Positions 24,723-45,019 of a DNA stretch of 64,000 nt are shown here, piece by piece. Below the pieces are notes generated by a model. The model saw only the letters and a list, made by a program, of their open reading frames with translations, did not search any database and was not told the DNA's origin. Made by a program: the position numbers and the translations under genes. This DNA comes from Escherichia phage TH09. Within the stretch, counting starts at the first letter, position 1. Each line of letters opens with the position of its first letter. Location: the sequence record MT446387.1. One strand, given 5' to 3'.

Positions 24723-25925
24723 ATGAAAGTATGTATTTTTATGGCTCGAGGTCTTGAAGGTTGTGGTGTAACAAAATTCTCACTCGAGCAACGTGATTGG
24801 TTTATTAAAAATGGTCATGAAGTAACTTTGGTTTATGCTAAAGATAAATCATTTACTCGTAATTGCGCGCATGATTATAAATCATTTTCAATTCCGGTTT
24901 TATTGGCAAAAGAATATGATAAAACACTTAAGCTGGTAAATGATTGTGATATTCTAATTATCAATTCGGTTCCTGCTACTTCGGTTGAAGAAGACACGAT
25001 TAATAACTATAAAAAAATTATTGATAACATTAAACCTTCTGTTCGTGTTGTAGTTTATCAACATGACCATTCTTCTCTTTCTTTGCGTCGAAATTTGGGA
25101 TTAGAAGAAACTGTTCGTCGAGCTGATGTTATTTTTAGCCATTCTGATAATGGTGATTTTAATAAAGTTCTGATGAAAGAGTGGTATCCTGAAACAGTTT
25201 CTCTGTTTGATGATATTGAAGAAGCGCCGACAGTATATAACTTTCAGCCTCCGATGGATATTGCGAAGGTTCGATCAACCTACTGGAAAGATGTTTCTGA
25301 AATTAACATGAATATCAACCGTTGGATTGGTCGTACTACTACATGGAAAGGTTTTTATCAGATGTTTGATTTTCATGAAAAACATCTTAAACCTGCAGGA
25401 CTAAGTACTATTATGGAAGGTCTGGAACGTTCTCCAGCGTTTATTCCTATTAAAGAAAAAGGAATTCCATACGAGTATTATCGTCTTCATCAAGTAGACC
25501 AAATTAAAATTGCTCCTAATTTGCCAACGCAAATTCTTGACCGTTATGTAAATAGCGAAATGCTTGAACGCATGAGTAAATCCGGTTTTGGTTATCAGTT
25601 GAGTAAGTTGGATAAAAAATATCTACAACGTTCTTTAGAATATACTCATCTCGAGCTTGGTGCATGTGGAACAATTCCGGTATTTTGGAAATCTACTGGC
25701 GAAAATTTAAAATTCCGTGTTGATAATAATCCTTTGACCTCGCATGATAGCGGTATCATTTGGTTTGATGAAAATGACATGGAATCAACATTTGAACATA
25801 TTAAAGAACTGTCATCTGACCGAGCTCTTTATGACCGTGAGCGAGAAAAAGCATATGAATTTTTGTATCAGCATCAAGATTCAAGCTTCTGCTTTAAAGA
25901 ACAGTTTGACATTATTACAAAATAA
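24723..25925 (+). CDS. a-gt: DNA alpha-glucosyltransferase
   Basis: 400 aa; N-terminus ...CIFMARGLEGCGVTKFSLEQRDWFIKNGHEVTLVYAKDKSF matches T4 alpha-gt. Confidence 0.85.
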   Translation: MKVCIFMARGLEGCGVTKFSLEQRDWFIKNGHEVTLVYAKDKSFTRNCAHDYKSFSIPVLLAKEYDKTLKLVNDCDILIINSVPATSVEEDTINNYKKIIDNIKPSVRVVVYQHDHSSLSLRRNLGLEETVRRADVIFSHSDNGDFNKVLMKEWYPETVSLFDDIEEAPTVYNFQPPMDIAKVRSTYWKDVSEINMNINRWIGRTTTWKGFYQMFDFHEKHLKPAGLSTIMEGLERSPAFIPIKEKGIPYEYYRLHQVDQIKIAPNLPTQILDRYVNSEMLERMSKSGFGYQLSKLDKKYLQRSLEYTHLELGACGTIPVFWKSTGENLKFRVDNNPLTSHDSGIIWFDENDMESTFEHIKELSSDRALYDREREKAYEFLYQHQDSSFCFKEQFDIITK

Positions 25926-32656: not shown

Positions 32657-35353
32657 ATGAAAGAATTTTATATCTCTATTGAAACAGTCGGAAATAACAT
32701 TGTTGAGCGTTATATTGATGAAAATGGAAATGAACGTACTCGTGAAGTAGAATATCTTCCAACTATGTTTAGGCATTGTAAGGAAGAGTCAAAGTACAAA
32801 GACATCTATGGTAAAAACTGCGCTCCTCAAAAATTTCCATCAATGAAAGATGCACGAGACTGGATGAAGCGAATGGAAGACATCGGTCTCGAAGCTCTTG
32901 GTATGAACGATTTTAAACTTGCTTATATCAGTGATACATATGGTTCAGAAATTGTTTATGACCGAAAATTTGTTCGTGTAGCTAACTGTGACATTGAGGT
33001 TACTGGTGATAAATTTCCTGACCCAATGAAAGCAGAATATGAAATTGATGCTATCACTCATTATGATTCAATTGACGATCGTTTTTACGTCTTTGATTTG
33101 TTGAATTCAATGTACGGTTCAGTATCAAAATGGGATGCAAAGTTAGCTGCTAAGCTTGACTGTGAAGGTGGTGATGAAGTTCCTCAAGAAATTCTTGACC
33201 GAGTAATTTATATGCCATTTGATAATGAGCGTGATATGCTCATGGAATATATCAATCTTTGGGAACAGAAACGACCTGCTATTTTTACTGGTTGGAATAT
33301 TGAGGGATTTGACGTTCCGTATATCATGAACCGTGTTAAAATGGTTCTCGGTGAACGCAGTATGAAACGTTTCTCTCCAATCGGTCGAGTAAAATCTAAA
33401 CTTATCCAAAATATGTACGGTAGCAAAGAAATTTATTCTATTGATGGCGTATCTATTCTTGATTATTTAGATTTGTACAAGAAATTCGCTTTTACTAATT
33501 TGCCGTCATTCTCTTTGGAATCAGTTGCTCAGCATGAAACCAAAAAAGGTAAATTACCATACGACGGTCCTATTAATAAACTTCGTGAGACTAATCATCA
33601 ACGATACATTAGTTATAACATCATTGACGTAGAATCAGTTCAAGCAATTGATAAAATTCGCGGGTTTATCGATCTAGTTTTAAGTATGTCTTATTACGCT
33701 AAAATGCCTTTTTCCGGTGTAATGAGTCCTATTAAAACTTGGGATGCTATTATTTTTAACTCATTGAAAGGTGAACATAAGGTTATTCCTCAACAAGGTT
33801 CGCACGTTAAACAAAGTTTTCCGGGTGCATTTGTATTTGAACCTAAACCAATTGCTCGTCGATATATTATGAGTTTTGACTTGACGTCTCTGTATCCGAG
33901 CATTATTCGTCAGGTTAACATTAGTCCTGAGACTATTCGTGGTCAGTTTAAAGTTCATCCAATTCATGAATATATCGCAGGAACAGCTCCTAAACCGAGT
34001 GATGAATATTCTTGTTCTCCGAATGGATGGATGTATGATAAGCATCAAGAAGGTATCATTCCAAAGGAAATCGCTAAAGTATTTTTCCAGCGTAAAGATT
34101 GGAAAAAGAAAATGTTCGCTGAAGAAATGAATGCCGAAGCTATTAAAAAGATTATTATGAAAGGCGCAGGGTCCTGTTCAACTAAACCTGAAGTTGAACG
34201 ATATGTTAAGTTCAGTGATGATTTCTTAAATGAATTATCGAATTACACCGAATCTGTTCTTAATAATTTGATCGAAGAGTGTGAAAAAGCAGCTACACTT
34301 GCTAACACAAATCAGCTGAACCGTAAAATTCTTATTAACAGTCTTTATGGTGCTCTTGGTAATATTCATTTCCGTTACTATGATTTGCGAAATGCTACTG
34401 CTATCACAATTTTCGGCCAAGTTGGTATTCAGTGGATTGCTCGTAAAATTAATGAATATCTGAATAAAGTATGCGGAACTAATGATGAAGATTTCATTGC
34501 AGCAGGTGATACTGATTCGGTATATGTTTGTGTAGATAAAGTTATTGAAAAAGTTGGTCTTGACCGATTCAAAGAGCAGAACGATTTAGTTGAATTCATG
34601 AATCAGTTCGGTAAGAAAAAGATGGAACCTATGATTGATGTTGCATATCGTGAGTTATGTGATTATATGAATAACCGCGAGCATCTGATGCATATGGACC
34701 GTGAAGCTATTTCTTGCCCTCCACTTGGTTCAAAGGGCGTTGGTGGATTTTGGAAAGCGAAAAAGCGCTATGCTCTGAACGTATATGATATGGAAGATAA
34801 GCGATTTGCTGAACCGCATCTAAAAATCATGGGTATGGAAACTCAGCAGAGTTCAACGCCTAAAGCGGTCCAAGAAGCTCTTGAAGAAAGTATTCGTCGT
34901 ATTCTTCAAGAAGGCGAAGAGTCTGTTCAAGAATATTATAAGAACTTTGAGAAAGAATATCGTCAACTTGACTATAAAGTTATTGCTGAAGTAAAAACTG
35001 CAAACGATATAGCGAAATATGATGATAAAGGTTGGCCAGGATTTAAATGCCCGTTCCATATTCGTGGTGTGCTAACTTATCGTCGAGCTGTTAACGGTTT
35101 AGGTGTAGCTCCAATTTTGGATGGAAATAAAGTAATGGTTCTTCCATTGCGTGAAGGAAATCCATTTGGTGACAAGTGCATTGCTTGGCCGTCGGGCACA
35201 GAACTTCCAAAAGAAATTCGTTCTGACGTATTGTCTTGGATTGACTACTCAACTTTGTTCCAAAAATCGTTTGTTAAACCGCTTGCAGGCATGTGTGAAT
35301 CGGCTGGTATGGACTATGAAGAAAAAGCTTCGTTAGACTTCCTGTTTGGCTGA
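32657..35353 (+). CDS. 43: DNA polymerase gp43 (family B)
   Basis: 898 aa; exonuclease motif NCDIEVTG; polymerase motif C AAGDTDSVYV. Confidence 0.95.
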   Translation: MKEFYISIETVGNNIVERYIDENGNERTREVEYLPTMFRHCKEESKYKDIYGKNCAPQKFPSMKDARDWMKRMEDIGLEALGMNDFKLAYISDTYGSEIVYDRKFVRVANCDIEVTGDKFPDPMKAEYEIDAITHYDSIDDRFYVFDLLNSMYGSVSKWDAKLAAKLDCEGGDEVPQEILDRVIYMPFDNERDMLMEYINLWEQKRPAIFTGWNIEGFDVPYIMNRVKMVLGERSMKRFSPIGRVKSKLIQNMYGSKEIYSIDGVSILDYLDLYKKFAFTNLPSFSLESVAQHETKKGKLPYDGPINKLRETNHQRYISYNIIDVESVQAIDKIRGFIDLVLSMSYYAKMPFSGVMSPIKTWDAIIFNSLKGEHKVIPQQGSHVKQSFPGAFVFEPKPIARRYIMSFDLTSLYPSIIRQVNISPETIRGQFKVHPIHEYIAGTAPKPSDEYSCSPNGWMYDKHQEGIIPKEIAKVFFQRKDWKKKMFAEEMNAEAIKKIIMKGAGSCSTKPEVERYVKFSDDFLNELSNYTESVLNNLIEECEKAATLANTNQLNRKILINSLYGALGNIHFRYYDLRNATAITIFGQVGIQWIARKINEYLNKVCGTNDEDFIAAGDTDSVYVCVDKVIEKVGLDRFKEQNDLVEFMNQFGKKKMEPMIDVAYRELCDYMNNREHLMHMDREAISCPPLGSKGVGGFWKAKKRYALNVYDMEDKRFAEPHLKIMGMETQQSSTPKAVQEALEESIRRILQEGEESVQEYYKNFEKEYRQLDYKVIAEVKTANDIAKYDDKGWPGFKCPFHIRGVLTYRRAVNGLGVAPILDGNKVMVLPLREGNPFGDKCIAWPSGTELPKEIRSDVLSWIDYSTLFQKSFVKPLAGMCESAGMDYEEKASLDFLFG

Positions 35354-35366
35354 TAGAATAAATCTA

Positions 35367-35388
35367 GGGACCTCCGGGTCCCTTTTTC
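35367..35388 (+). terminator. intrinsic terminator hairpin + U-run
   Basis: gggacc-tccg-ggtccc followed by ttttt. Confidence 0.6.
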
Positions 35389-35469
35389 ATACAAGTAATA
35401 TAAATCTATACTTATGAAAAACAGATGATTCTGGACCTTTAGAATTCCCTAAAAAATTTTCACAAAACT

Positions 35470-35499
35470 GTTTACAAGACTGTTCTTCCATGGTACTAT
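35470..35499 (+). promoter_or_regulatory. early promoter cassette (GTTTACA-N17-TACTAT)
   Basis: aaaattttcacaaaactgtttacaagactgttcttccatggtactatacaactatcaact. Confidence 0.6.
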
Positions 35500-35536
35500 A
35501 CAACTATCAACTATTGATACAGATTTGGAGAATAAA

Positions 35537-35773
35537 ATGAAAATTGTTATGGGATGCTTAGCAGTTTGTTTAGTTGCATTAGCAGCAGTTCCATTTGTTA
35601 GTGTTGAAAATGATACTCAACCTGTGATTGAATCTAGCACCGTTATTCACACTAATGGTAAAATATCAGTTAAAATTGATGATAATCTTCATGTGAATAC
35701 AAATGGATCTTTAGGTGTGCAAATGGGTAATACCTGCATAAGCACTACTGGAGTAATTACTACTTGCATTTGA
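35537..35773 (+). CDS. secreted small protein
   Basis: track ORF 35525..35773; ATG 35537 after ttggagaataaa SD; signal peptide MKIVMGCLAVCLVALAAVPF. Confidence 0.45.
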   Translation: MKIVMGCLAVCLVALAAVPFVSVENDTQPVIESSTVIHTNGKISVKIDDNLHVNTNGSLGVQMGNTCISTTGVITTCI

Positions 35774-35783
35774 GGAAATTATT

Positions 35784-36164
35784 ATGAAAATCGCTATTTT
35801 GGTTATTGCATTAGGTCTTACTGGTTGTGTAGCTCAAGGACCGGTAGTAAATCAGTCTGATGTAGGAAAAATTGTAAACTGTTCAAGCAAATTTTATAAT
35901 CCTAATGTCAAGTGTTATAAAGAAGCTCCAAAACAGACAGTAGAACAAATGCAGGCGAATTTTGACGAAGCTATTCGTCCAGATGAATCTGCTCAAGCAT
36001 ATCGTAATTCGGATGTAATTACACGCGAAGAAAAAATTGAAAACTACTGCGCCGAGCTTTGGGCTAATTGGGCTAATAATTACCAATGGCGTACTGGTAA
36101 AAATGCTCCGATGGAGTATGTAGTGAATTCTTATAATTCATGTGTAAAAAATTTGACTAAGTGA
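35784..36164 (+). CDS. lipoprotein
   Basis: 126 aa; signal peptide with lipobox LTGC. Confidence 0.5.
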   Translation: MKIAILVIALGLTGCVAQGPVVNQSDVGKIVNCSSKFYNPNVKCYKEAPKQTVEQMQANFDEAIRPDESAQAYRNSDVITREEKIENYCAELWANWANNYQWRTGKNAPMEYVVNSYNSCVKNLTK

Positions 36165-36171
36165 GGAAAAC

Positions 36172-36423
36172 ATGGAAACTTTAGTAGCAGGTTCAATTTT
36201 TATGGTTTTAGTTTCAGGTGTGTTGGCTATTATTATATACATGCTTCCATGGTTTATCGCCTTGATGCGTGGGTCAAAATCGACAGTAGGAATCTTTTTC
36301 ACATCTTTACTGTTTAACTGGTCAATTATTGGTTGGTTTATTACATTTATTTGGTCAATTGCGGGTGAAACTAAAAAGTCTGCACAGCCAAATCAGGTAA
36401 TTATCATCAGAGAGAAGGAATGA
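36172..36423 (+). CDS. imm: superinfection immunity membrane protein Imm
   Basis: 83 aa, two TM helices; size and position next to gene 42 as in T4. Confidence 0.55.
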   Translation: METLVAGSIFMVLVSGVLAIIIYMLPWFIALMRGSKSTVGIFFTSLLFNWSIIGWFITFIWSIAGETKKSAQPNQVIIIREKE

Positions 36424-36569
36424 AAAGCAAAATTATAACAGTGTTGCTTTTAATCTTGATGATTATAATAAGTATATACTATAGTGTAACGGTTCCTCTT
36501 ATGATTCCAACTATTATTTTAGGTTGGAGCTTATTACTGTTACAAGTTAAATATGAATGTATCAATTGA
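36420..36569 (+). CDS. small membrane peptide (about 49 aa)
   Basis: ATGA overlap with imm; MKSKIITVLLLILMIIISIYY... Confidence 0.3.
   Translation: MKSKIITVLLLILMIIISIYYSVTVPLMIPTIILGWSLLLLQVKYECIN
36443..36469 (+). promoter_or_regulatory. candidate middle promoter (MotA box TTGCTTTTA + TATAAT)
   Basis: gttgcttttaatcttgatgattataat upstream of gene 42, inside the small ORF. Confidence 0.35.
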
Positions 36570-36576
36570 GGTTTAA

Positions 36577-37317
36577 ATGATTAGTGACTCTATGACAGTT
36601 GAAGAAATCCGTCTTCATTTGGGGCTTGCATTAAAAGAAAAAGATTTCGTAGTTGATAAAACTGGTGTTAAAACTATTGAAATTATTGGCGCATCATTTA
36701 TAGCAGATGAACCGTTTATTTTTGGCGCTCTTAATGATGAATACATTCAGCGTGAACTTGAATGGTATAAATCTAAGAGCTTGTTTGTTAAAGATATTCC
36801 AGGTGAAACACCAAAGATTTGGCAGCAGGTAGCATCTTCTAAAGGCGAAATTAACTCGAATTACGGTTGGGCTATTTGGTCAGAAGATAACTATGCCCAG
36901 TATGATATGTGTTTAGCTGAACTTGGTCAAAATCCTGATTCTCGACGTGGTATCATGATTTATACTCGTCCATCTATGCAGTTTGACTATAATAAAGATG
37001 GTATGTCAGATTTCATGTGTACGAATACAGTACAGTACCTGATTCGTGATAAGAAAGTCAATGCAGTAGTAAGCATGCGCTCAAATGATGTGGTCTTCGG
37101 ATTCCGTAATGATTATGCATGGCAAAAATACGTATTAGATAAATTAGTATCTGATTTGAATGCCGGCGATTCAACTCGTCAGTATAAAGCAGGTTCTATT
37201 ATATGGAATGTTGGAAGTCTTCATGTATATTCTCGTCATTTTTACTTGGTTGATCATTGGTGGAATACTGGCGAAACTCATATTGTGAAAAAAGACTATA
37301 AAGGTGAGTGGAAATGA
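36577..37317 (+). CDS. 42: dCMP hydroxymethylase gp42
   Basis: 246 aa; thymidylate-synthase-like fold; matches T4 gp42. Confidence 0.85.
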   Translation: MISDSMTVEEIRLHLGLALKEKDFVVDKTGVKTIEIIGASFIADEPFIFGALNDEYIQRELEWYKSKSLFVKDIPGETPKIWQQVASSKGEINSNYGWAIWSEDNYAQYDMCLAELGQNPDSRRGIMIYTRPSMQFDYNKDGMSDFMCTNTVQYLIRDKKVNAVVSMRSNDVVFGFRNDYAWQKYVLDKLVSDLNAGDSTRQYKAGSIIWNVGSLHVYSRHFYLVDHWWNTGETHIVKKDYKGEWK

Positions 37318-38156
37318 TTCAATTCGTAATTCCGAGCTATCAGCGTGTTGGGGCAGTTTCTGCCCTTGATATGTTTCCGACTGATTATGAACCACATATT
37401 GTAGTGCGTGAACATGAAGAAAAAGCTTATCATGACGCTTATGGGTCTAGAGCTAAAATTATAGCTATTCCTGATGATGTAAACGGAATTGCCGGTACTC
37501 GTAAAGCAATTACTGATATGTATGCAGGTCAACGAATTTGGATGATTGACGATGATACTACTATTCGTATGAGTTCAATGCGAAAAAGAGATGATCGTCG
37601 TTGTGTGGATAAAGTCAATCAATTAACCCGTGAACAGTTCTATGAATTGATTCAATACGTTGAAGATGCTATGGATTGCGGGTATTATCACGGTCATGCT
37701 CGTCTACCTATTTTTAAAATTACTTCATCTTGGGGTAATTATCGTGAAAATTCATATGGATTCACGAATACATGGTATGACCTCGGAAAACTTACGACAG
37801 AACAAATTGGGTATGGAAAAATTGATTTGTGCGAAGATATGTATGCATTTCTCAATTTAATTAATCAAGGTTATCCGCATTTGGCCTTGTTCAAATATCT
37901 GGTTGTATCTGGAAAAGCACAAGCTCCTGGCGGGTGCAGTTCAATTCGCAGTAATTCTAAACATAATAGAGCGCTTGAGCAGATCAATAGAGAGTTTCCA
38001 GAGCAAGCTCGTTGGAAAACTTCTAATATTGAAAAACGAAAATCGTTGGGTGAAGAAGACGAGCCATTAAAGGTTCTTCGTATGTGTGTTTCACGTAAAG
38101 AAAAATCAGAAGCATTTCATAAGTTTAATGCTATTCATCCAATAGCAGTTGATTAA
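37308..38156 (+). CDS. putative glycosyltransferase at the beta-gt locus
   Basis: 282 aa between 42 and uvsX; DxD-like MIDDDTT; not similar to T4 beta-gt as I recall it; possibly the T2/T6-type beta-glucosyl-HMC alpha-glucosyltransferase. Confidence 0.35.
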   Translation: MEMIQFVIPSYQRVGAVSALDMFPTDYEPHIVVREHEEKAYHDAYGSRAKIIAIPDDVNGIAGTRKAITDMYAGQRIWMIDDDTTIRMSSMRKRDDRRCVDKVNQLTREQFYELIQYVEDAMDCGYYHGHARLPIFKITSSWGNYRENSYGFTNTWYDLGKLTTEQIGYGKIDLCEDMYAFLNLINQGYPHLALFKYLVVSGKAQAPGGCSSIRSNSKHNRALEQINREFPEQARWKTSNIEKRKSLGEEDEPLKVLRMCVSRKEKSEAFHKFNAIHPIAVD

Positions 38157-38233
38157 TGCCTAAATTTATTGTGTTATAATTACTCTATCTTTAACCAGTG
38201 AGGAAAATATAATGATGCCTATGGAAAAAATGA

Positions 38234-39415
38234 ATGTCTATTGCAGATTTAAAATCCCGTTTGATTAAAGCTTCCACTTCTAAAATGACTGCTGAACTGA
38301 CTACATCTAAATTCTTTAATGAAAAGGATGTAATCCGTACAAAAATCCCAATGCTTAATATTGCTATTTCTGGCGCGATTGATGGCGGTATGCAGTCTGG
38401 TTTAACTATTTTCGCAGGGCCTTCTAAACACTTTAAATCAAATATGTCTTTAACTATGGTTGCGGCATATTTGAACAAATATCCTGACGCAGTTTGTCTA
38501 TTCTATGATAGCGAATTTGGTATTACTCCAGCTTATTTGCGATCCATGGGAGTTGACCCGGAACGAGTAATTCATACGCCAATTCAGTCAGTTGAACAGC
38601 TGAAAATTGATATGGTGAACCAACTTGAAGCTATTGAGCGTGGTGAAAAGGTTATTGTATTCATCGACTCAATTGGTAATATGGCTTCTAAGAAAGAAAC
38701 TGAAGATGCCTTGAATGAAAAATCTGTGGCAGATATGACTCGTGCTAAATCACTGAAGTCATTATTCCGTATTGTTACTCCTTACTTTAGCATTAAAAAT
38801 ATTCCATGTGTTGCGGTTAACCATACAATTGAAACAATTGAAATGTTTAGTAAAACCGTGATGACAGGTGGTACAGGCGTAATGTATTCGGCTGATACCG
38901 TATTCATTATCGGTAAACGTCAGATTAAAGATGGTTCTGATCTTCAGGGGTATCAATTTGTTCTAAATGTAGAAAAATCTCGTACCGTTAAAGAAAAAAG
39001 TAAATTCTTTATTGATGTTAAATTTGACGGTGGTATCGATCCTTATTCTGGATTGTTAGATATGGCTCTAGAATTAGGATTTGTTGTAAAACCTAAAAAT
39101 GGCTGGTATGCTCGTGAATTTCTTGACGAAGAAACTGGCGAGATGATTCGCGAAGAAAAATCTTGGCGTGCAAAAGATACCAACTGCACTACATTCTGGG
39201 GTCCTTTATTTAAGCATCAACCGTTCCGAGATGCTATTAAACGTGCTTATCAGTTAGGTGCTATTGATAGTAATGAAATTGTTGAAGCTGAAGTTGATGA
39301 ATTAATTAACTCAAAAGTTGAAAAATTTAAATCTCCAGAAAGTAAAAGTAAATCAGCTGCTGATTTAGAAACTGACTTAGAACAGTTAAGTGATATGGAA
39401 GAATTTAATGAATAA
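38234..39415 (+). CDS. uvsX: recombinase UvsX (RecA-like)
   Basis: 393 aa; Walker A GPSKHFKS; N-terminus DLKSRLIKASTSK matches T4 UvsX. Confidence 0.9.
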   Translation: MSIADLKSRLIKASTSKMTAELTTSKFFNEKDVIRTKIPMLNIAISGAIDGGMQSGLTIFAGPSKHFKSNMSLTMVAAYLNKYPDAVCLFYDSEFGITPAYLRSMGVDPERVIHTPIQSVEQLKIDMVNQLEAIERGEKVIVFIDSIGNMASKKETEDALNEKSVADMTRAKSLKSLFRIVTPYFSIKNIPCVAVNHTIETIEMFSKTVMTGGTGVMYSADTVFIIGKRQIKDGSDLQGYQFVLNVEKSRTVKEKSKFFIDVKFDGGIDPYSGLLDMALELGFVVKPKNGWYAREFLDEETGEMIREEKSWRAKDTNCTTFWGPLFKHQPFRDAIKRAYQLGAIDSNEIVEAEVDELINSKVEKFKSPESKSKSAADLETDLEQLSDMEEFNE

Positions 39416-39752
39416 AGATGATTTGGATTTAGATCTAGAAATTATCGACGAATCCCCCTCTTCGGAGGGGGAAGAAGAAAGAAAAGAACGTCTTTTTAAT
39501 GAATCTCTTAAGATAATTAAATCTGCCATGGAAAATGTTATCCAGGAGATTGTCATTAAACTAGAAGACGGTTCTACACACATTGTGTATGTGACAAAAT
39601 TAGATTGGGTTGATGGAAAAGTCGTAATGGACTTTGCTGTTCTTGACCAAGAAAGAAAAGCTGAGTTAGCTCCTCATGTAGAAAAATGTATTACAATGCA
39701 ACTGCAAGATGCATTTAATAAAAGGTCAAAGAAAAAATTTAAATTCTTTTAA
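39408..39752 (+). CDS. 40: head vertex assembly protein gp40 (by position)
   Basis: track ORF 39390..39752; ATG 39408 overlaps uvsX stop; acidic N-terminus. Confidence 0.45.
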   Translation: MNKDDLDLDLEIIDESPSSEGEEERKERLFNESLKIIKSAMENVIQEIVIKLEDGSTHIVYVTKLDWVDGKVVMDFAVLDQERKAELAPHVEKCITMQLQDAFNKRSKKKFKFF

Positions 39753-39761
39753 GGAGTAAGT

Positions 39762-41189
39762 GTGGTAGAAATTATTCTTTCTCATCTCATATTTGATCAA
39801 GCTTATTTTTCAAAAGTTTGGCCATATATGGATTCAGAATATTTTGAAAGTGGTCCAGCTAAAAATACATTCAAATTAATTAAATCTCATGTTAACGAGT
39901 ATCATAGCGTTCCATCTATTAATGCGTTAAATGTTGCGTTAGAAAATAGTTCATTTACTGAAACAGAATATTCTGGTGTAAAAACACTTATTTCAAAACT
40001 GGCCGATTCTCCGGAAGACCATAGCTGGTTAGTAAAAGAAACAGAAAAATATGTTCAGCAAAGGGCGATGTTTAATGCTACGTCTAAAATAATCGAAATT
40101 CAAACTAATGCTGAGCTTCCTCCGGAAAAACGAAATAAGAAAATGCCGGATGTTGGTGCTATTCCTGACATCATGCGACAAGCATTATCAATTTCATTTG
40201 ATAGTTATGTTGGTCATGATTGGATGGATGACTACGAAGCACGCTGGCTATCTTATATGAATAAAGCTCGTAAGGTTCCATTTAAACTCAAAATTCTAAA
40301 TAAAATTACTAAAGGCGGAGCTGAAACTGGAACACTGAACGTTTTAATGGCTGGTGTTAACGTTGGTAAGTCATTAGGTCTGTGTTCATTGGCAGCAGAT
40401 TATTTGCAGCTCGGACATAATGTTCTTTACATTTCCATGGAAATGGCAGAAGAAGTCTGTGCTAAACGTATTGATGCTAATATGCTTGACGTTTCTCTTG
40501 ATGACATTGACGATGGGCATATTTCTTACGCTGAATATAAAGGAAAAATGGAAAAATGGCGTGAGAAATCTACTCTCGGCCGTTTAATCGTTAAACAGTA
40601 TCCTACTGGTGGAGCAGACGCTAATACATTTCGATCGCTTTTAAACGAATTAAAGCTCAAGAAGAATTTTGTTCCAACAATCATTATTGTTGACTATCTA
40701 GGTATTTGTAAATCTTGCCGCATCAGAGTTTATTCAGAAAATAGTTACACAACTGTTAAAGCCATCGCAGAAGAATTGCGTGCTCTTGCTGTTGAAACCG
40801 AAACTGTTCTTTGGACCGCAGCACAGGTTGGTAAACAAGCTTGGGATTCTTCTGATGTTAACATGAGCGATATTGCAGAATCTGCCGGTCTTCCAGCAAC
40901 AGCCGATTTTATGCTTGCGGTCATTGAAACTGAGGAGTTAGCAGCTGCTGAACAACAACTCATTAAGCAAATCAAATCACGATATGGCGATAAGAATAAG
41001 TGGAATAAGTTTTTGATGGGTGTTCAAAAGGGAAATCAGAAATGGGTAGAAATTGAACAAGATTCTACTCCAACTGAAGTGAGTGAAGTAGCAGGTTCAC
41101 AACAGATTCAGGCTGAACAGAATCGCTATCAAAGAAATGAATCCACTCGAGCACAGTTAGATGCTTTGGCAAATGAATTAAAATTTTAG
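39762..41189 (+). CDS. 41: replicative DNA helicase gp41 (DnaB-like)
   Basis: 475 aa, GTG start; Walker A GVNVGKS. Confidence 0.9.
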   Translation: MVEIILSHLIFDQAYFSKVWPYMDSEYFESGPAKNTFKLIKSHVNEYHSVPSINALNVALENSSFTETEYSGVKTLISKLADSPEDHSWLVKETEKYVQQRAMFNATSKIIEIQTNAELPPEKRNKKMPDVGAIPDIMRQALSISFDSYVGHDWMDDYEARWLSYMNKARKVPFKLKILNKITKGGAETGTLNVLMAGVNVGKSLGLCSLAADYLQLGHNVLYISMEMAEEVCAKRIDANMLDVSLDDIDDGHISYAEYKGKMEKWREKSTLGRLIVKQYPTGGADANTFRSLLNELKLKKNFVPTIIIVDYLGICKSCRIRVYSENSYTTVKAIAEELRALAVETETVLWTAAQVGKQAWDSSDVNMSDIAESAGLPATADFMLAVIETEELAAAEQQLIKQIKSRYGDKNKWNKFLMGVQKGNQKWVEIEQDSTPTEVSEVAGSQQIQAEQNRYQRNESTRAQLDALANELKF

Positions 41190-41226
41190 TTTACAAGCTG
41201 ACAAGACTATGGTATAGTAGTCTTGT
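41189..41226 (+). promoter_or_regulatory. early promoter with inverted repeat around -10
   Basis: gtttacaagctgaCAAGACTAtggtatagTAGTCTTGt. Confidence 0.55.
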
Positions 41227-41247
41227 TGGTTAAATGAGGAGATTGTT

Positions 41248-41430
41248 ATGGAATTGGTAAAGGTAGTTTTTATGGGGTGGTTTAAGAATGAAAGCATGTT
41301 TATTAAAGAAACCACAATGATGAAAGATGACGTTCAATGGGCTACTACTCAATATGCTGAAGTTAATAAAGCATTAGTTAAAGCTTTCATTGATGACAAG
41401 AAAGTATGTGAAGTAGATTGCCGAGGATAA
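41248..41430 (+). CDS. hypothetical small protein
   Basis: 60 aa; SD gaggag. Confidence 0.4.
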   Translation: MELVKVVFMGWFKNESMFIKETTMMKDDVQWATTQYAEVNKALVKAFIDDKKVCEVDCRG

Positions 41431-41431
41431 T

Positions 41432-41689
41432 ATGCATATTGTTTTATTTAAACCTACTCCGTATAACGTCAGGAAAAATACGCAATTCAAAGCGCTTATT
41501 GCGGATACATGGGAATTGGTGTTAGATATTCCAGCAGAAGAAAGTCCTCCATTTGGTCGAGTGGAATTTATTAAGTTTGTTGTACGTCCTACGAAGAGGC
41601 AGATTCGTCAGTGTAAAAGGCATTTTCGTAAGATCGTTAAGCTAGAGAAACAGTTTGTAACATGTGATTATGCAGAAGTTTTAAAATAA
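41432..41689 (+). CDS. hypothetical basic protein
   Basis: 85 aa. Confidence 0.4.
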   Translation: MHIVLFKPTPYNVRKNTQFKALIADTWELVLDIPAEESPPFGRVEFIKFVVRPTKRQIRQCKRHFRKIVKLEKQFVTCDYAEVLK

Positions 41690-41691
41690 CT

Positions 41692-41721
41692 ATTTACTTT
41701 TGTTGGAAATTGAGATACTAT
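41692..41721 (+). promoter_or_regulatory. early promoter (ATTTACT-N17-TACTAT)
   Basis: ctatttacttttgttggaaattgagatactat. Confidence 0.45.
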
Positions 41722-41749
41722 ATAAACATAAACTACTGAGGAGATTATC

Positions 41750-42043
41750 ATGAAAAAATTTATTTTTGCTACAATTTTTACTTTGGCTTCTTGTGCTGCT
41801 CAGCCTGCTATGGCAGGATATGATAAAGATTTGTGTGAATGGTCTATGACTGCAGATCAGACTGAAGTTGAAACTCAAATTGAAGCGGATATTATGAATA
41901 TCGTTGAGCGCGATCGTCCTGAAATGAAAGCTGAAGTACAAAAACAGCTTAAGTCTGGTGGTGTAATGCAGTATAATTACGTTCTGTATTGTGATAAAAA
42001 CTTCAATAATAAAAATATCGTAACCGAAATCACAGGCGAATAA
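41750..42043 (+). CDS. sp: periplasmic Spackle-like protein
   Basis: 97 aa with signal peptide; position between 41 and 61; length equals T4 Sp. Confidence 0.5.
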   Translation: MKKFIFATIFTLASCAAQPAMAGYDKDLCEWSMTADQTEVETQIEADIMNIVERDRPEMKAEVQKQLKSGGVMQYNYVLYCDKNFNNKNIVTEITGE

Positions 42044-43203: not shown

Positions 43204-44232
43204 ATGTCATCAATACCTTGGATTGATAATGAGTTTGCATACCGTGCATTAGCTCATTTACCTAAATTCACACAAGTAAATAATAGTTCAACTTTTAAAT
43301 TACGGTTTAGATGTCCTGTTTGTGGAGATTCAAAAACCGACCAGAATAAAGCTCGTGGATGGTATTATGGTGATAATAATGAAGGAAATATTCATTGTTA
43401 TAACTGTAACTATCATGCACCAATCGGAATATATTTAAAGGAGTTTGAACCTGATTTATATCGTGAGTATATCTTTGAAATAAGAAAAGAAAAAGGTAAA
43501 AGTCGTCCAGTAGAAAAACCTAAAGAACTTCCTAAACAACCCGAAAAGAAAATAATTAAATCTCTTCCGTCATGTGTTAGATTAGATAAACTGGCGGAAG
43601 ACCATCCAATTATAAAATATGTAAAAGCTCGTTGTATTCCAAAGGATAAATGGAAATATCTTTGGTTTACAACTGAATGGCCTAAATTAGTTAATAGCAT
43701 AGCACCAGGAACATACAAAAAGGAAATTTCTGAGCCTCGTCTTGTTATTCCAATTTATAATGCTAATGGAAAAGCTGAGTCTTTTCAAGGACGTGCATTA
43801 AAGAAAGATGCTCCTCAAAAATATATCACCATTAAAGCTTATCCTGAGGCAACAAAAATTTACGGTGTTGAACGAGTTAAAGATGGTGATGTATATGTTC
43901 TAGAAGGACCTATAGATTCACTTTTTATTGAAAATGGTATAGCTATTACGGGTGGTCAATTAGACCTAGAAGTTGTTCCATTTAAAGATAGACGAGTGTG
44001 GGTTTTAGATAATGAACCTCGTCACCCTGACACTATCAAACGAATGACTAAATTAGTTGATGCAGGAGAAAGGGTTATGTTTTGGGATAAATCTCCCTGG
44101 AAATCAAAAGATGTCAATGATATGATTAGAAAGGAAGGTGCAACCCCTGAACAAATTATGAAATATATGAAAAATAATATTGCCCAGGGGTTGATGGCTA
44201 AAATGCGGCTATCTAAATATGCTAAGATTTAA
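43204..44232 (+). CDS. 61: DNA primase gp61
   Basis: 342 aa; N-terminal zinc ribbon CPVCGDSK...CYNCNYH; TOPRIM-like C-terminal region. Confidence 0.9.
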   Translation: MSSIPWIDNEFAYRALAHLPKFTQVNNSSTFKLRFRCPVCGDSKTDQNKARGWYYGDNNEGNIHCYNCNYHAPIGIYLKEFEPDLYREYIFEIRKEKGKSRPVEKPKELPKQPEKKIIKSLPSCVRLDKLAEDHPIIKYVKARCIPKDKWKYLWFTTEWPKLVNSIAPGTYKKEISEPRLVIPIYNANGKAESFQGRALKKDAPQKYITIKAYPEATKIYGVERVKDGDVYVLEGPIDSLFIENGIAITGGQLDLEVVPFKDRRVWVLDNEPRHPDTIKRMTKLVDAGERVMFWDKSPWKSKDVNDMIRKEGATPEQIMKYMKNNIAQGLMAKMRLSKYAKI

Positions 44233-44500: not shown

Positions 44501-45019
44501 ATGGCTTACTTTAATGAATGTTCACAACTGATCGAAGGCGCTGATAAAGCTCAAAATGAATACTGGGATATTCTCGGTGATGAAAAAGACCCGCTGCAGG
44601 TTATGCTTGATATGCAGAAATCTCTGCAGGTTCGTTTAGCTAAAGATAAACCTGAATATAACCGTCATCCTGATGATTTGGCTACTGCAGGTGAAGTTGT
44701 TGATTGGCTGCGCAATCAGAAAGATTATATTGATGATGAATTCCGCGAACTTCTGACTTCTCTTGGTGGTATGAGCAATGGTGAAAAAGATGCATCTGCT
44801 GTATGGAAGCCATGGAAAGCTCAACATGGTGAACGTCGTGAAACTCTGATTACTGATTTGTCTCCACAAGACCAGTTGGAAATTAAATTCGAAATGATTG
44901 ATATTCTTCATTTCGTTCTGAACATGTTCCAAGGTCTCGGTCTTACGGCTGAAGAAATCTTTAAACTTTATTATCTGAAAAATGCTGAAAACTTCGCTCG
45001 CCAAGACCGAGGTTACTAA
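44501..45019 (+). CDS. 56: dCTPase/dUTPase gp56
   Basis: 172 aa from ATG 44501 (track ORF begins upstream); MazG-like; matches T4 gp56. Confidence 0.8.
   Translation: MAYFNECSQLIEGADKAQNEYWDILGDEKDPLQVMLDMQKSLQVRLAKDKPEYNRHPDDLATAGEVVDWLRNQKDYIDDEFRELLTSLGGMSNGEKDASAVWKPWKAQHGERRETLITDLSPQDQLEIKFEMIDILHFVLNMFQGLGLTAEEIFKLYYLKNAENFARQDRGY

Follow-up and report, generated by a model that had tools for sequence, protein, structure and literature searches.

A T2/T6-type beta-glucosyl-HMC-alpha-glucosyltransferase gene at the T4 beta-gt locus of Escherichia phage TH09

Identification of the gene between gene 42 and uvsX

A 64,000-nucleotide stretch of DNA from Escherichia phage TH09 (MT446387.1; hereafter the window) carries, between gene 42 and uvsX, an open reading frame (ORF) at the locus where T4 encodes its beta-glucosyltransferase (beta-gt). 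We conclude with high confidence that this ORF is an intact ortholog of the T2/T6 gene for beta-glucosyl-HMC-alpha-glucosyltransferase (ba-gt, also called ggt or g-gt), that its product belongs to the Pfam family of TET-associated glycosyltransferases (TAGT), and that together with the DNA alpha-glucosyltransferase (alpha-gt) it would make alpha-gentiobiosyl-hydroxymethylcytosine (gentiobiosyl-hmC). This analysis itself showed the orthology and synteny, the class of fold, the conserved residues and the presence of the partner genes; the reaction product and the knockout phenotype are taken from the literature on near-identical enzymes, and the residue roles, the translational coupling and the quantitative pattern of modification described below are those that we infer. 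The finding is in itself ordinary, the T2/T6 enzyme being found in its known place. The classical biochemistry of the T2/T6 enzyme is reportedly due to Lehman and Pratt in 1960 and Kuno and Lehman in 1962, the gene is said to have been cloned by Winkler and Rueger in 1993, and the TAGT family was reportedly defined by Iyer, Aravind and colleagues in 2013.

The window protein matched PHROG 842, "beta-glucosyl-HMC-alpha-glucosyltransferase", over residues 1-275 (E 1.9e-88), and Pfam PF20691 (TAGT) over residues 3-207, spanning positions 2-205 of the 205-position profile with a score of 41.8 bits (E 1.5e-10), above the curated gathering cut-off of 27.5 bits. PF20691 was also carried by database homologs of the protein. 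Identity to the T2 enzyme was 98.6% over 280 aa, and identity to T6 beta-glucosyl-HMC-alpha-glucosyltransferase was 98.5% over 261 aa. The nucleotide sequence of ba-gt was 100% identical in Escherichia phages JLBYU31 and JLBYU22 (Tequatrovirus gizh), the flanking 8.8 kb aligned to JLBYU31 without gaps at 99.2% identity, and the gene 42-uvsX region was collinear with those of T2 and T6 in blastn comparisons. Together with the predicted fold described below, these matches support the proposal, made in an earlier note from the sequence alone, that the locus encodes the second glucosyltransferase of the T2/T6 type.

The same note had seen no resemblance to T4 beta-gt, and this was borne out: the best BLASTP match between the two proteins had an E-value of 2.2, and the T4 beta-gt family PF09198 did not match the window protein at E <= 1. 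When T4 beta-gt was searched by tblastn against the whole window, the best E-value was 1.4, and no T4-type beta-gt is encoded there. A divergent T4 beta-gt was discarded on the basis of these BLASTP and tblastn results. Sequence searches of the PDB, made both with the protein and with a nine-sequence profile, returned only noise (MazF, E 0.3; a PNPOx-like protein, E 1.6) and no solved relative; the MazF match was put down to chance. The gene adjoining ba-gt was found to encode a deoxycytidine monophosphate (dCMP) hydroxymethylase of the thymidylate-synthase family and not a TET/JBP-family dioxygenase. A TAGT without a TET/JBP neighbour is a known state for the T-even members and leaves membership by sequence unaffected (PMC13216743).

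Predicted fold and conserved residues

The AlphaFold model of the window protein adopted a GT-A fold, and a fold search with it returned GT-A neighbours. The model consists of a single Rossmann-like alpha/beta/alpha domain, predicted to bind a nucleotide sugar as in the GT-A (GT2-like, inverting) glycosyltransferases. The earlier proposal would have been refuted by the lack of a glycosyltransferase fold or by clear homology to an unrelated family; both were looked for, and what was found was the GT-A model along with the TAGT and PHROG 842 matches.

An exhaustive HMMER search yielded 340 homolog representatives at E <= 0.001. Conservation was read from 74 aligned family members, full-length and diverse (19-64% identity); a second alignment was of close homologs. 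Only R11, D80, D175 and G207 were invariant in the 74 members, and I6, P7, R63, D79, D81, G186, G206, R212 and P229 were conserved in at least 90% of them. All of these residues are retained in the window protein. Arg11 (codon 37344-37346, plus strand, as are the following residues) was invariant in both alignments and is replaced by His in T2. The earlier note had pointed to a DxD-like MIDDDTT motif, which corresponds to residues 77-83 (37542-37562). Its Asp79-Asp80-Asp81 (37548-37556) lies at the C-terminal end of the strand 74-79 of the model, and we read it as the conserved DxD of the family. The DxD of GT-A enzymes usually follows the central strand and forms the site for the metal and the diphosphate of uridine diphosphate (UDP)-glucose, a role that D79-D81 would share. 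In the pair Glu174-Asp175 ("ED", 37833-37838), both residues are invariant in close homologs, and D175 is a good candidate for the catalytic base of an inverting GT-A enzyme. Gly206-Gly207 (37929-37934) belong to a GGCS loop followed by Arg212; this loop is poorly resolved in the model, with a predicted local distance difference test score of about 50. The C-terminal 70 residues or so, rich in basic residues, extend beyond the PF20691 model and may help to bind DNA.

Enzymatic activity and proposed pathway

The role of near-identical enzymes has been established genetically and chemically. In T6 lacking ba-gt, only alpha-glucosyl-hmC was left and sensitivity to the glycosylase Brig1 was increased (PMC11078745), and the DNA became a substrate of the deglucosylase BapA (bioRxiv 10.64898/2026.02.25.707755). 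Tequatroviruses of the Durham Collection that carry an alpha-glucosyltransferase (alpha-GT) and a TAGT syntenic to the T4 beta-glucosyltransferase (beta-GT) were found by high-performance liquid chromatography and mass spectrometry (HPLC/MS) to contain 5-hydroxymethyldeoxycytidine (5-hmdC), alpha-glucosyl-hmdC and alpha-gentiobiosyl-hmdC, and no beta-glucosyl-hmdC (PMC13390438). In T2, T6 and the Durham phages about 25-33% of the hmC is bare and no beta-glucosyl-hmC is present, and gentiobiosyl-hmC amounts to about 5% in T2 and about 72% in T6 (PMC13390438; bioRxiv 10.64898/2026.02.25.707755). The activity of the window enzyme in forming gentiobiosyl-hmC is thus indirectly supported, by the HPLC/MS data for phages with a 99.3%-identical enzyme and by the T6 knockout.

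In the pathway that we propose, the product of gene 42 would make hydroxymethyl-dCMP, and hmC would enter the DNA at replication. Alpha-gt would then add an alpha-linked glucose to about three quarters of the hmC, and ba-gt, presumably a metal-dependent inverting GT-A enzyme, would use UDP-glucose to place a second glucose in beta-1,6 linkage on the first one, yielding alpha-gentiobiosyl-hmC. The DxD formed by D79/D81 would hold the divalent metal and the UDP diphosphate, and D175 would serve as the catalytic base, activating the 6-OH group on the first glucose. Bare hmC would not be glucosylated by ba-gt, so that about one quarter to one third of the hmC would stay unglucosylated and no beta-glucosyl-hmC would be formed.

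Translation start and integrity of the ORF

The ORF at the locus spans 37308-38156 on the plus strand and would encode 282 aa if its GTG codon were used, as the earlier note had assumed. That ORF is present, with the reservation that GTG 37308 has no spacing for a ribosome-binding site. Two codons downstream, ATG 37314 is located 6 nt past a Shine-Dalgarno (SD)-like GGTGA (37303-37307), within a start region (37303-37317, plus strand) read from the sequence. In JLBYU31, T2 and the phages of the Durham Collection, the gene is annotated from the equivalent ATG. The GTG start was dropped in favour of this ATG; the true start is almost certainly ATG 37314, and the product therefore has 280 and not 282 residues. 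The resulting ba-gt coding sequence runs from 37314 to 38156 on the plus strand (280 aa and stop), as delimited by the ORF, the PHROG 842 and PF20691 matches and the identity to T2 and T6. Its start and the stop codon of gene 42 (37315-37317) have 4 nt in common in an ATGA overlap (37314-37317), which suggests that ba-gt is translationally coupled to gene 42.

Comparison of the window ba-gt with each of eight alleles from T2, T6 and Durham phages gave 21-32 synonymous and 2-9 non-synonymous codon differences. Because synonymous differences far exceed non-synonymous ones, the pattern of codon change marks the ORF as a real and intact gene under purifying selection and not a chance ORF.

A 7-bp GC-rich hairpin (GGGGCAG, TTT, CTGCCCT; 37350-37366) was found 36 nt inside the ba-gt coding sequence. 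It is unchanged in 10 out of 10 alleles, and the wobble position of the codon immediately before it varies (GTT/GTA/GTC). A scan of 35400-39600 gave 17 promoter-like sequences against 17.9 in shuffled sequence and 2 terminator-like sequences against 1.9. The hairpin is not claimed as a terminator, since the count does not exceed that of shuffled sequence, and it may be due to chance.

Alleles of ba-gt and the expected modification pattern

Two quantitative patterns have been described among the Durham phages: in EL, BGP and Geo, hmC, alpha-glucosyl-hmC and gentiobiosyl-hmC occur at about 1:2:2 (hereafter the partial pattern), and in a group that includes Solly, TB37 and CP, the hmC is about 1/3 bare and 2/3 gentiobiosylated, with little alpha-glucosyl-hmC (the near-complete pattern; PMC13390438). 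We compared nine alleles, that of the window included; the Durham phages QOTSP, Some, EH2 and NR1 were left out of this table, and Some was used for its alpha-gt. EL, BGP and Geo have one common ba-gt protein with the changes I50V, M89I, R95K, C97R, V101I, A202S and Q203H. The Solly and TB37 proteins equal the consensus, from which the CP protein departs by V30A. Only Y40H and T51A separate the window protein from that of Solly and TB37, and the alignment of homologs is freely variable at both positions. Among the nine alleles, H40 and A51 occur in the window alone; they are necessarily carried by JLBYU31 and JLBYU22, with their 100% identical nucleotides. None of the seven changes of the partial group, nor the T2-private R11H and P251S, is present in the window ba-gt, which is 99.3% identical to the near-complete-pattern allele vs 96.8% to the partial-pattern allele. 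Likewise, the window alpha-gt shares 99.5% identity with the alpha-gt of Some, which belongs to the near-complete class, and 91.5% with the alpha-gt of EL. EL, BGP and Geo are marked by dam and an adjacent restriction endonuclease (REase)-like gene, and the window has neither.

Because the allele, the alpha-gt and the absent marker genes all match the near-complete class, the DNA of the phage is expected, with somewhat better than even confidence and from a comparison of six phylogenetically clustered phages, to be T6-like. It would thus contain about 2/3 gentiobiosyl-hmC, about 1/3 bare hmC, little alpha-glucosyl-hmC and no beta-glucosyl-hmC.

The comparison also drew attention to T2, in which R11H is present in both records (PV648363.1, AP018813.1); Arg11 is found in the window, in T6 and in all Durham phages. 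The T2 R11H enzyme may, speculatively, be a natural hypomorph, which could explain the gentiobiosyl-hmC content of about 5% in T2. More broadly, natural ba-gt alleles might set the level of di-glucosylation, with the window allele "high", the EL/BGP/Geo haplotype "medium" and T2 R11H a hypomorph; we hold this to be rather unlikely. The evidence for it is correlative (three phages against three, plus T2), and the alpha-gt alleles co-vary. If true, such an allele effect would account for the values of about 5% in T2 and about 72% in T6 despite nearly identical enzymes, a gap known since around 1960 for which no explanation was found in the literature examined.

It has to be noted that both public T6 records carry lesions in ba-gt. 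MH550421.1 has a TAG amber at codon 10, with the coding sequence annotated from Met20 (261 aa), and AP018814.1 has lost one GAT in frame, which turns DDD into DD; the two proteins are otherwise identical. These lesions are laboratory-stock mutations or sequencing errors, and neither record is a clean ba-gt reference.

Alternative explanations

The same enzyme could, through lower activity or expression, operate in a T2-like or intermediate pattern, with about 5-40% gentiobiosyl-hmC and mostly mono-alpha-glucosyl-hmC. We consider this unlikely. Three observations speak for it: the T2 and T6 enzymes are only a few residues apart and yet the phages carry 5% and 72% gentiobiosyl-hmC, so that minor changes, or factors acting in trans, can have an effect; two private substitutions, H40 and A51, are present in the window allele; and its closest listed nucleotide relative after the JLBYU phages is JK1 (98.1%), which is also the closest to the partial-pattern EL. 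On the other hand, H40 and A51 fall in freely variable columns, the protein is closer to the near-complete allele (99.3% vs 96.8%) and lacks R11H as well as the seven partial-group substitutions, the alpha-gt matches the near-complete phages, and neither marker gene, dam or REase-like, is present. A T6-like pattern was preferred on these grounds.

A functional analog of T4 beta-gt, which would glucosylate bare hmC directly and leave the DNA fully mono-glucosylated, would fit the exact position of the gene and the labels "b-gt" or "beta-glucosyltransferase" that many records give to ba-gt. This is nevertheless very improbable, given the lack of sequence similarity to T4 beta-gt, the GT-A instead of GT-B fold class (fold search; PMC13216743) and the loss of the second glucose, not the first, in T6 delta-ba-gt (PMC11078745); for near-identical orthologs it is contradicted by T2, T6 and the Durham phages, which carry ba-gt and still keep 25-33% bare hmC with no beta-glucosyl-hmC. 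It is likewise very improbable that the locus is occupied by a gene that has decayed or lost catalysis, or by one from an unrelated protein family. The lesions in both public T6 records do indicate that laboratory stocks can acquire damage in ba-gt, but the window copy is full length and keeps every family-invariant residue, its synonymous differences far outnumber the non-synonymous ones, and the Pfam, PHROG and fold results all fit an active GT-A enzyme. Altogether, the data favour an intact ba-gt of the T2/T6 type.

Neighbouring genes and the cassette difference from T4

The position between gene 42 and uvsX, as given by the earlier note, agrees with the matches of the two flanking genes. 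Gene 42 (36577-37317, plus strand), upstream of ba-gt with the 4-nt overlap, matched PHROG 160 (thymidylate-synthase family, E 6.6e-67) and is annotated in relatives as dCMP hydroxymethylase; uvsX (38234-39415), downstream of ba-gt, matched PHROG 97 (E 7.4e-110). The alpha-gt gene was correctly placed at 24723-25925 (plus strand), where the encoded DNA alpha-glucosyltransferase matched PHROG 2888 over its full length (residues 1-400, E 8.6e-222). A homolog of the gp56 dCTPase, which keeps unmodified cytosine out of the DNA, is encoded at 44501-45016 (plus strand), where the dCTPase of EL gave a tblastn match (70.9% identity over 172 aa, E 2.5e-82).

Comparison by blastn of window positions 34000-42000 with the T4, T6 and T2 loci defined a segment without T4 homology at 37300-38245 (plus strand). 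Homology to T4 ends at 37299, 18 nt ahead of the gene 42 stop, and restarts at 38246, 12 nt inside uvsX. The 946 bp of the window thus correspond to 1,941 bp with beta-gt and segA in T4, a clean cassette difference; segA, carried by the T4 cassette, was not found in the 64-kb window.

Several further differences were observed among the surrounding genes. The gp56 homolog, at 70.9% identity to that of EL, adjoins a gene for primase gp61 (43204-44229) that is 99.4% identical, a sharp mosaic boundary in an hmC-pathway gene; the dam and adjacent REase-like genes, located next to gene 56 in EL, are absent from the window. A small variable segment (35514-35783) separates the DNA polymerase gene (43) from imm.1, with about 230 bp that align neither to T4, which has nothing there, nor to T2, which has different small ORFs. 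Inside it, an ORF at 35525-35773 (about 79-82 aa, with a hydrophobic N-terminus) is annotated as hypothetical in JLBYU31. A hydrophobic ORF of 49 aa (36420-36569) between imm and gene 42 overlaps the imm stop. T2 PV648363.1 and the records of the Durham phages have it annotated, unlike JLBYU31, T6 MH550421.1 and T2 AP018813.1. By comparison of annotation only, T4 NC_000866 has nothing in the gap between imm and gene 42.

The ba-gt/uvsX junction

The longest run of identity in the gene 42-uvsX locus across eight phages (window, T2, T6, EL, Geo, Solly, TB37 and CP) was a 199-nt stretch at 38097-38295, which begins 60 nt before the end of ba-gt, takes in all 77 nt between the two genes and reaches 62 nt into uvsX. 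Variable sites among the same phages made up 7.1% of the locus and 9.5% of ba-gt, and the T4 sequence at this position is unrelated. RNA folding of 38140-38300 gave no structure signal (z = -0.04), and structure therefore does not explain the conservation.

The intergenic region (38157-38233, plus strand) is the same in the eight phages. It includes most of a MotA-box-like TAATGCCTAA (38154-38163), separated by 11 nt from TATAAT (38175-38180), and an SD GAGG (38200-38203). We take the elements at 38154-38180 to be a putative MotA-type middle promoter, as judged against the T4 middle-promoter consensus. The region 38157-38233 is likely the promoter and leader of uvsX, and it falls within the cassette in which the window and T4 differ. 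The GAGG, a strong SD, is followed by ATGATG (38212-38217), which opens an 18-codon ORF encoding MMPMEKMNVYCRFKIPFD and ending in a stop codon, within 38200-38268. This ORF overlaps uvsX out of frame with its ATG 38234, a start whose own SD is weak. The 18-codon ORF is conserved at every T2/T6-type locus examined, and T4 lacks it. The upstream ORF could couple or regulate the translation of uvsX.

Frequency of ba-gt and significance for annotation

T2/T6-type ba-gt was found in 474 phage records (at least 90% nucleotide identity) and T4-type beta-gt in 29, mostly T4 itself and its derivatives. In a 2026 survey, alpha-GT with beta-GT occurred in only 6/753 glycosyltransferase-encoding phages, and alpha-GT with TAGT was the usual pair (PMC13216743). 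The earlier description of a different gene at the locus holds with regard to T4 beta-gt but is T4-centred: T4-like coliphages usually carry ba-gt at this locus, and it is T4 that is exceptional.

Labels in public records are often misleading. In RB55 (KM607002.1) and RB59 (KM607003.1) they are swapped, with a T4-type beta-gt called "beta-glucosyl-HMC-alpha-glucosyl-transferase"; the T2/T6-type gene is frequently labelled "b-gt", "beta-glucosyltransferase" or "hypothetical protein", and gene 42 widely "thymidylate synthase". RB27 (NC_025448.1) and Sf22 (MF158045.1) are further examples of mislabelling. T4 is thus an atypical reference at this locus, and "b-gt" labels on ba-gt mislead. For the window, the matter is one of correct annotation: hmC and alpha-gentiobiosyl-hmC are to be expected, not the T4 mix of alpha- and beta-glucosyl-hmC. 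The modification state helps to predict the host range and defence sensitivity of therapeutic or model tequatroviruses. Bare hmC exposes DNA to McrBC-type enzymes. It also leaves the phage open to Brig3 (bioRxiv 10.64898/2026.02.25.707755). Gentiobiosyl-hmC is resistant both to Brig1, a glycosylase of alpha-glucosyl-hmC, and to the deglucosylase BapA (PMC11078745; bioRxiv 10.64898/2026.02.25.707755), and enzymes of the GmrSD/BrxU type cut all of these hmC forms (PMC13390438; PMC13216743).

Comparison with known systems

T4 b-gt shares with the window gene the slot downstream of gene 42, and both enzymes use UDP-glucose, invert to a beta linkage and diversify the glycosylation of hmC-DNA. The T4 enzyme differs in belonging to PF09198, with a GT-B fold and no sequence similarity to the window ba-gt. 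It completes glucosylation to 100% on bare hmC, whereas ba-gt extends alpha-glucosyl-hmC and about 25-33% of the hmC stays bare; moreover, the T4 slot also holds the homing endonuclease gene segA, absent in the window. T4 b-gt is taken here to be CAZy GT63. The wording of PMC13216743, read in order, gives GT63 for alpha-GT and GT72 for beta-GT, and the sources thus disagree.

With the TAGT family at large, the window protein has in common the PF20691 match, the GT-A fold, the conserved DxD, the invariant Asp175 and a gene located beside that of an enzyme generating hydroxymethyl-pyrimidine. It differs in being paired with a dCMP hydroxymethylase, for hmC synthesis at the nucleotide level, and not with a TET/JBP dioxygenase; its acceptor would be a sugar already on the DNA and not the hydroxymethyl base, and it has the basic C-terminal extension of about 70 aa. 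The second-sugar transferases of Mosigvirus (RB69, NP, Bas46/47), likened here by description only, also turn a mono-glycosylated cytosine derivative into a disaccharide and thereby alter the susceptibility to host defences (PMC13390438; PMC13216743), but they are different enzymes, using arabinose and a 5-hydroxy-dC precursor to give di-arabinosylated 5-hydroxycytosine.

The closest systems are T2 and T6 themselves, with the same 280-aa length, 98.5-98.6% identity, the gene 42-uvsX position, the ATGA overlap and the partner alpha-gt. The window protein has four substitutions from each reference; it keeps the Arg11 and Pro251 changed in T2 and, in comparison with the public T6 records, is intact, with a sense codon at position 10 and all three Asp of the DDD.

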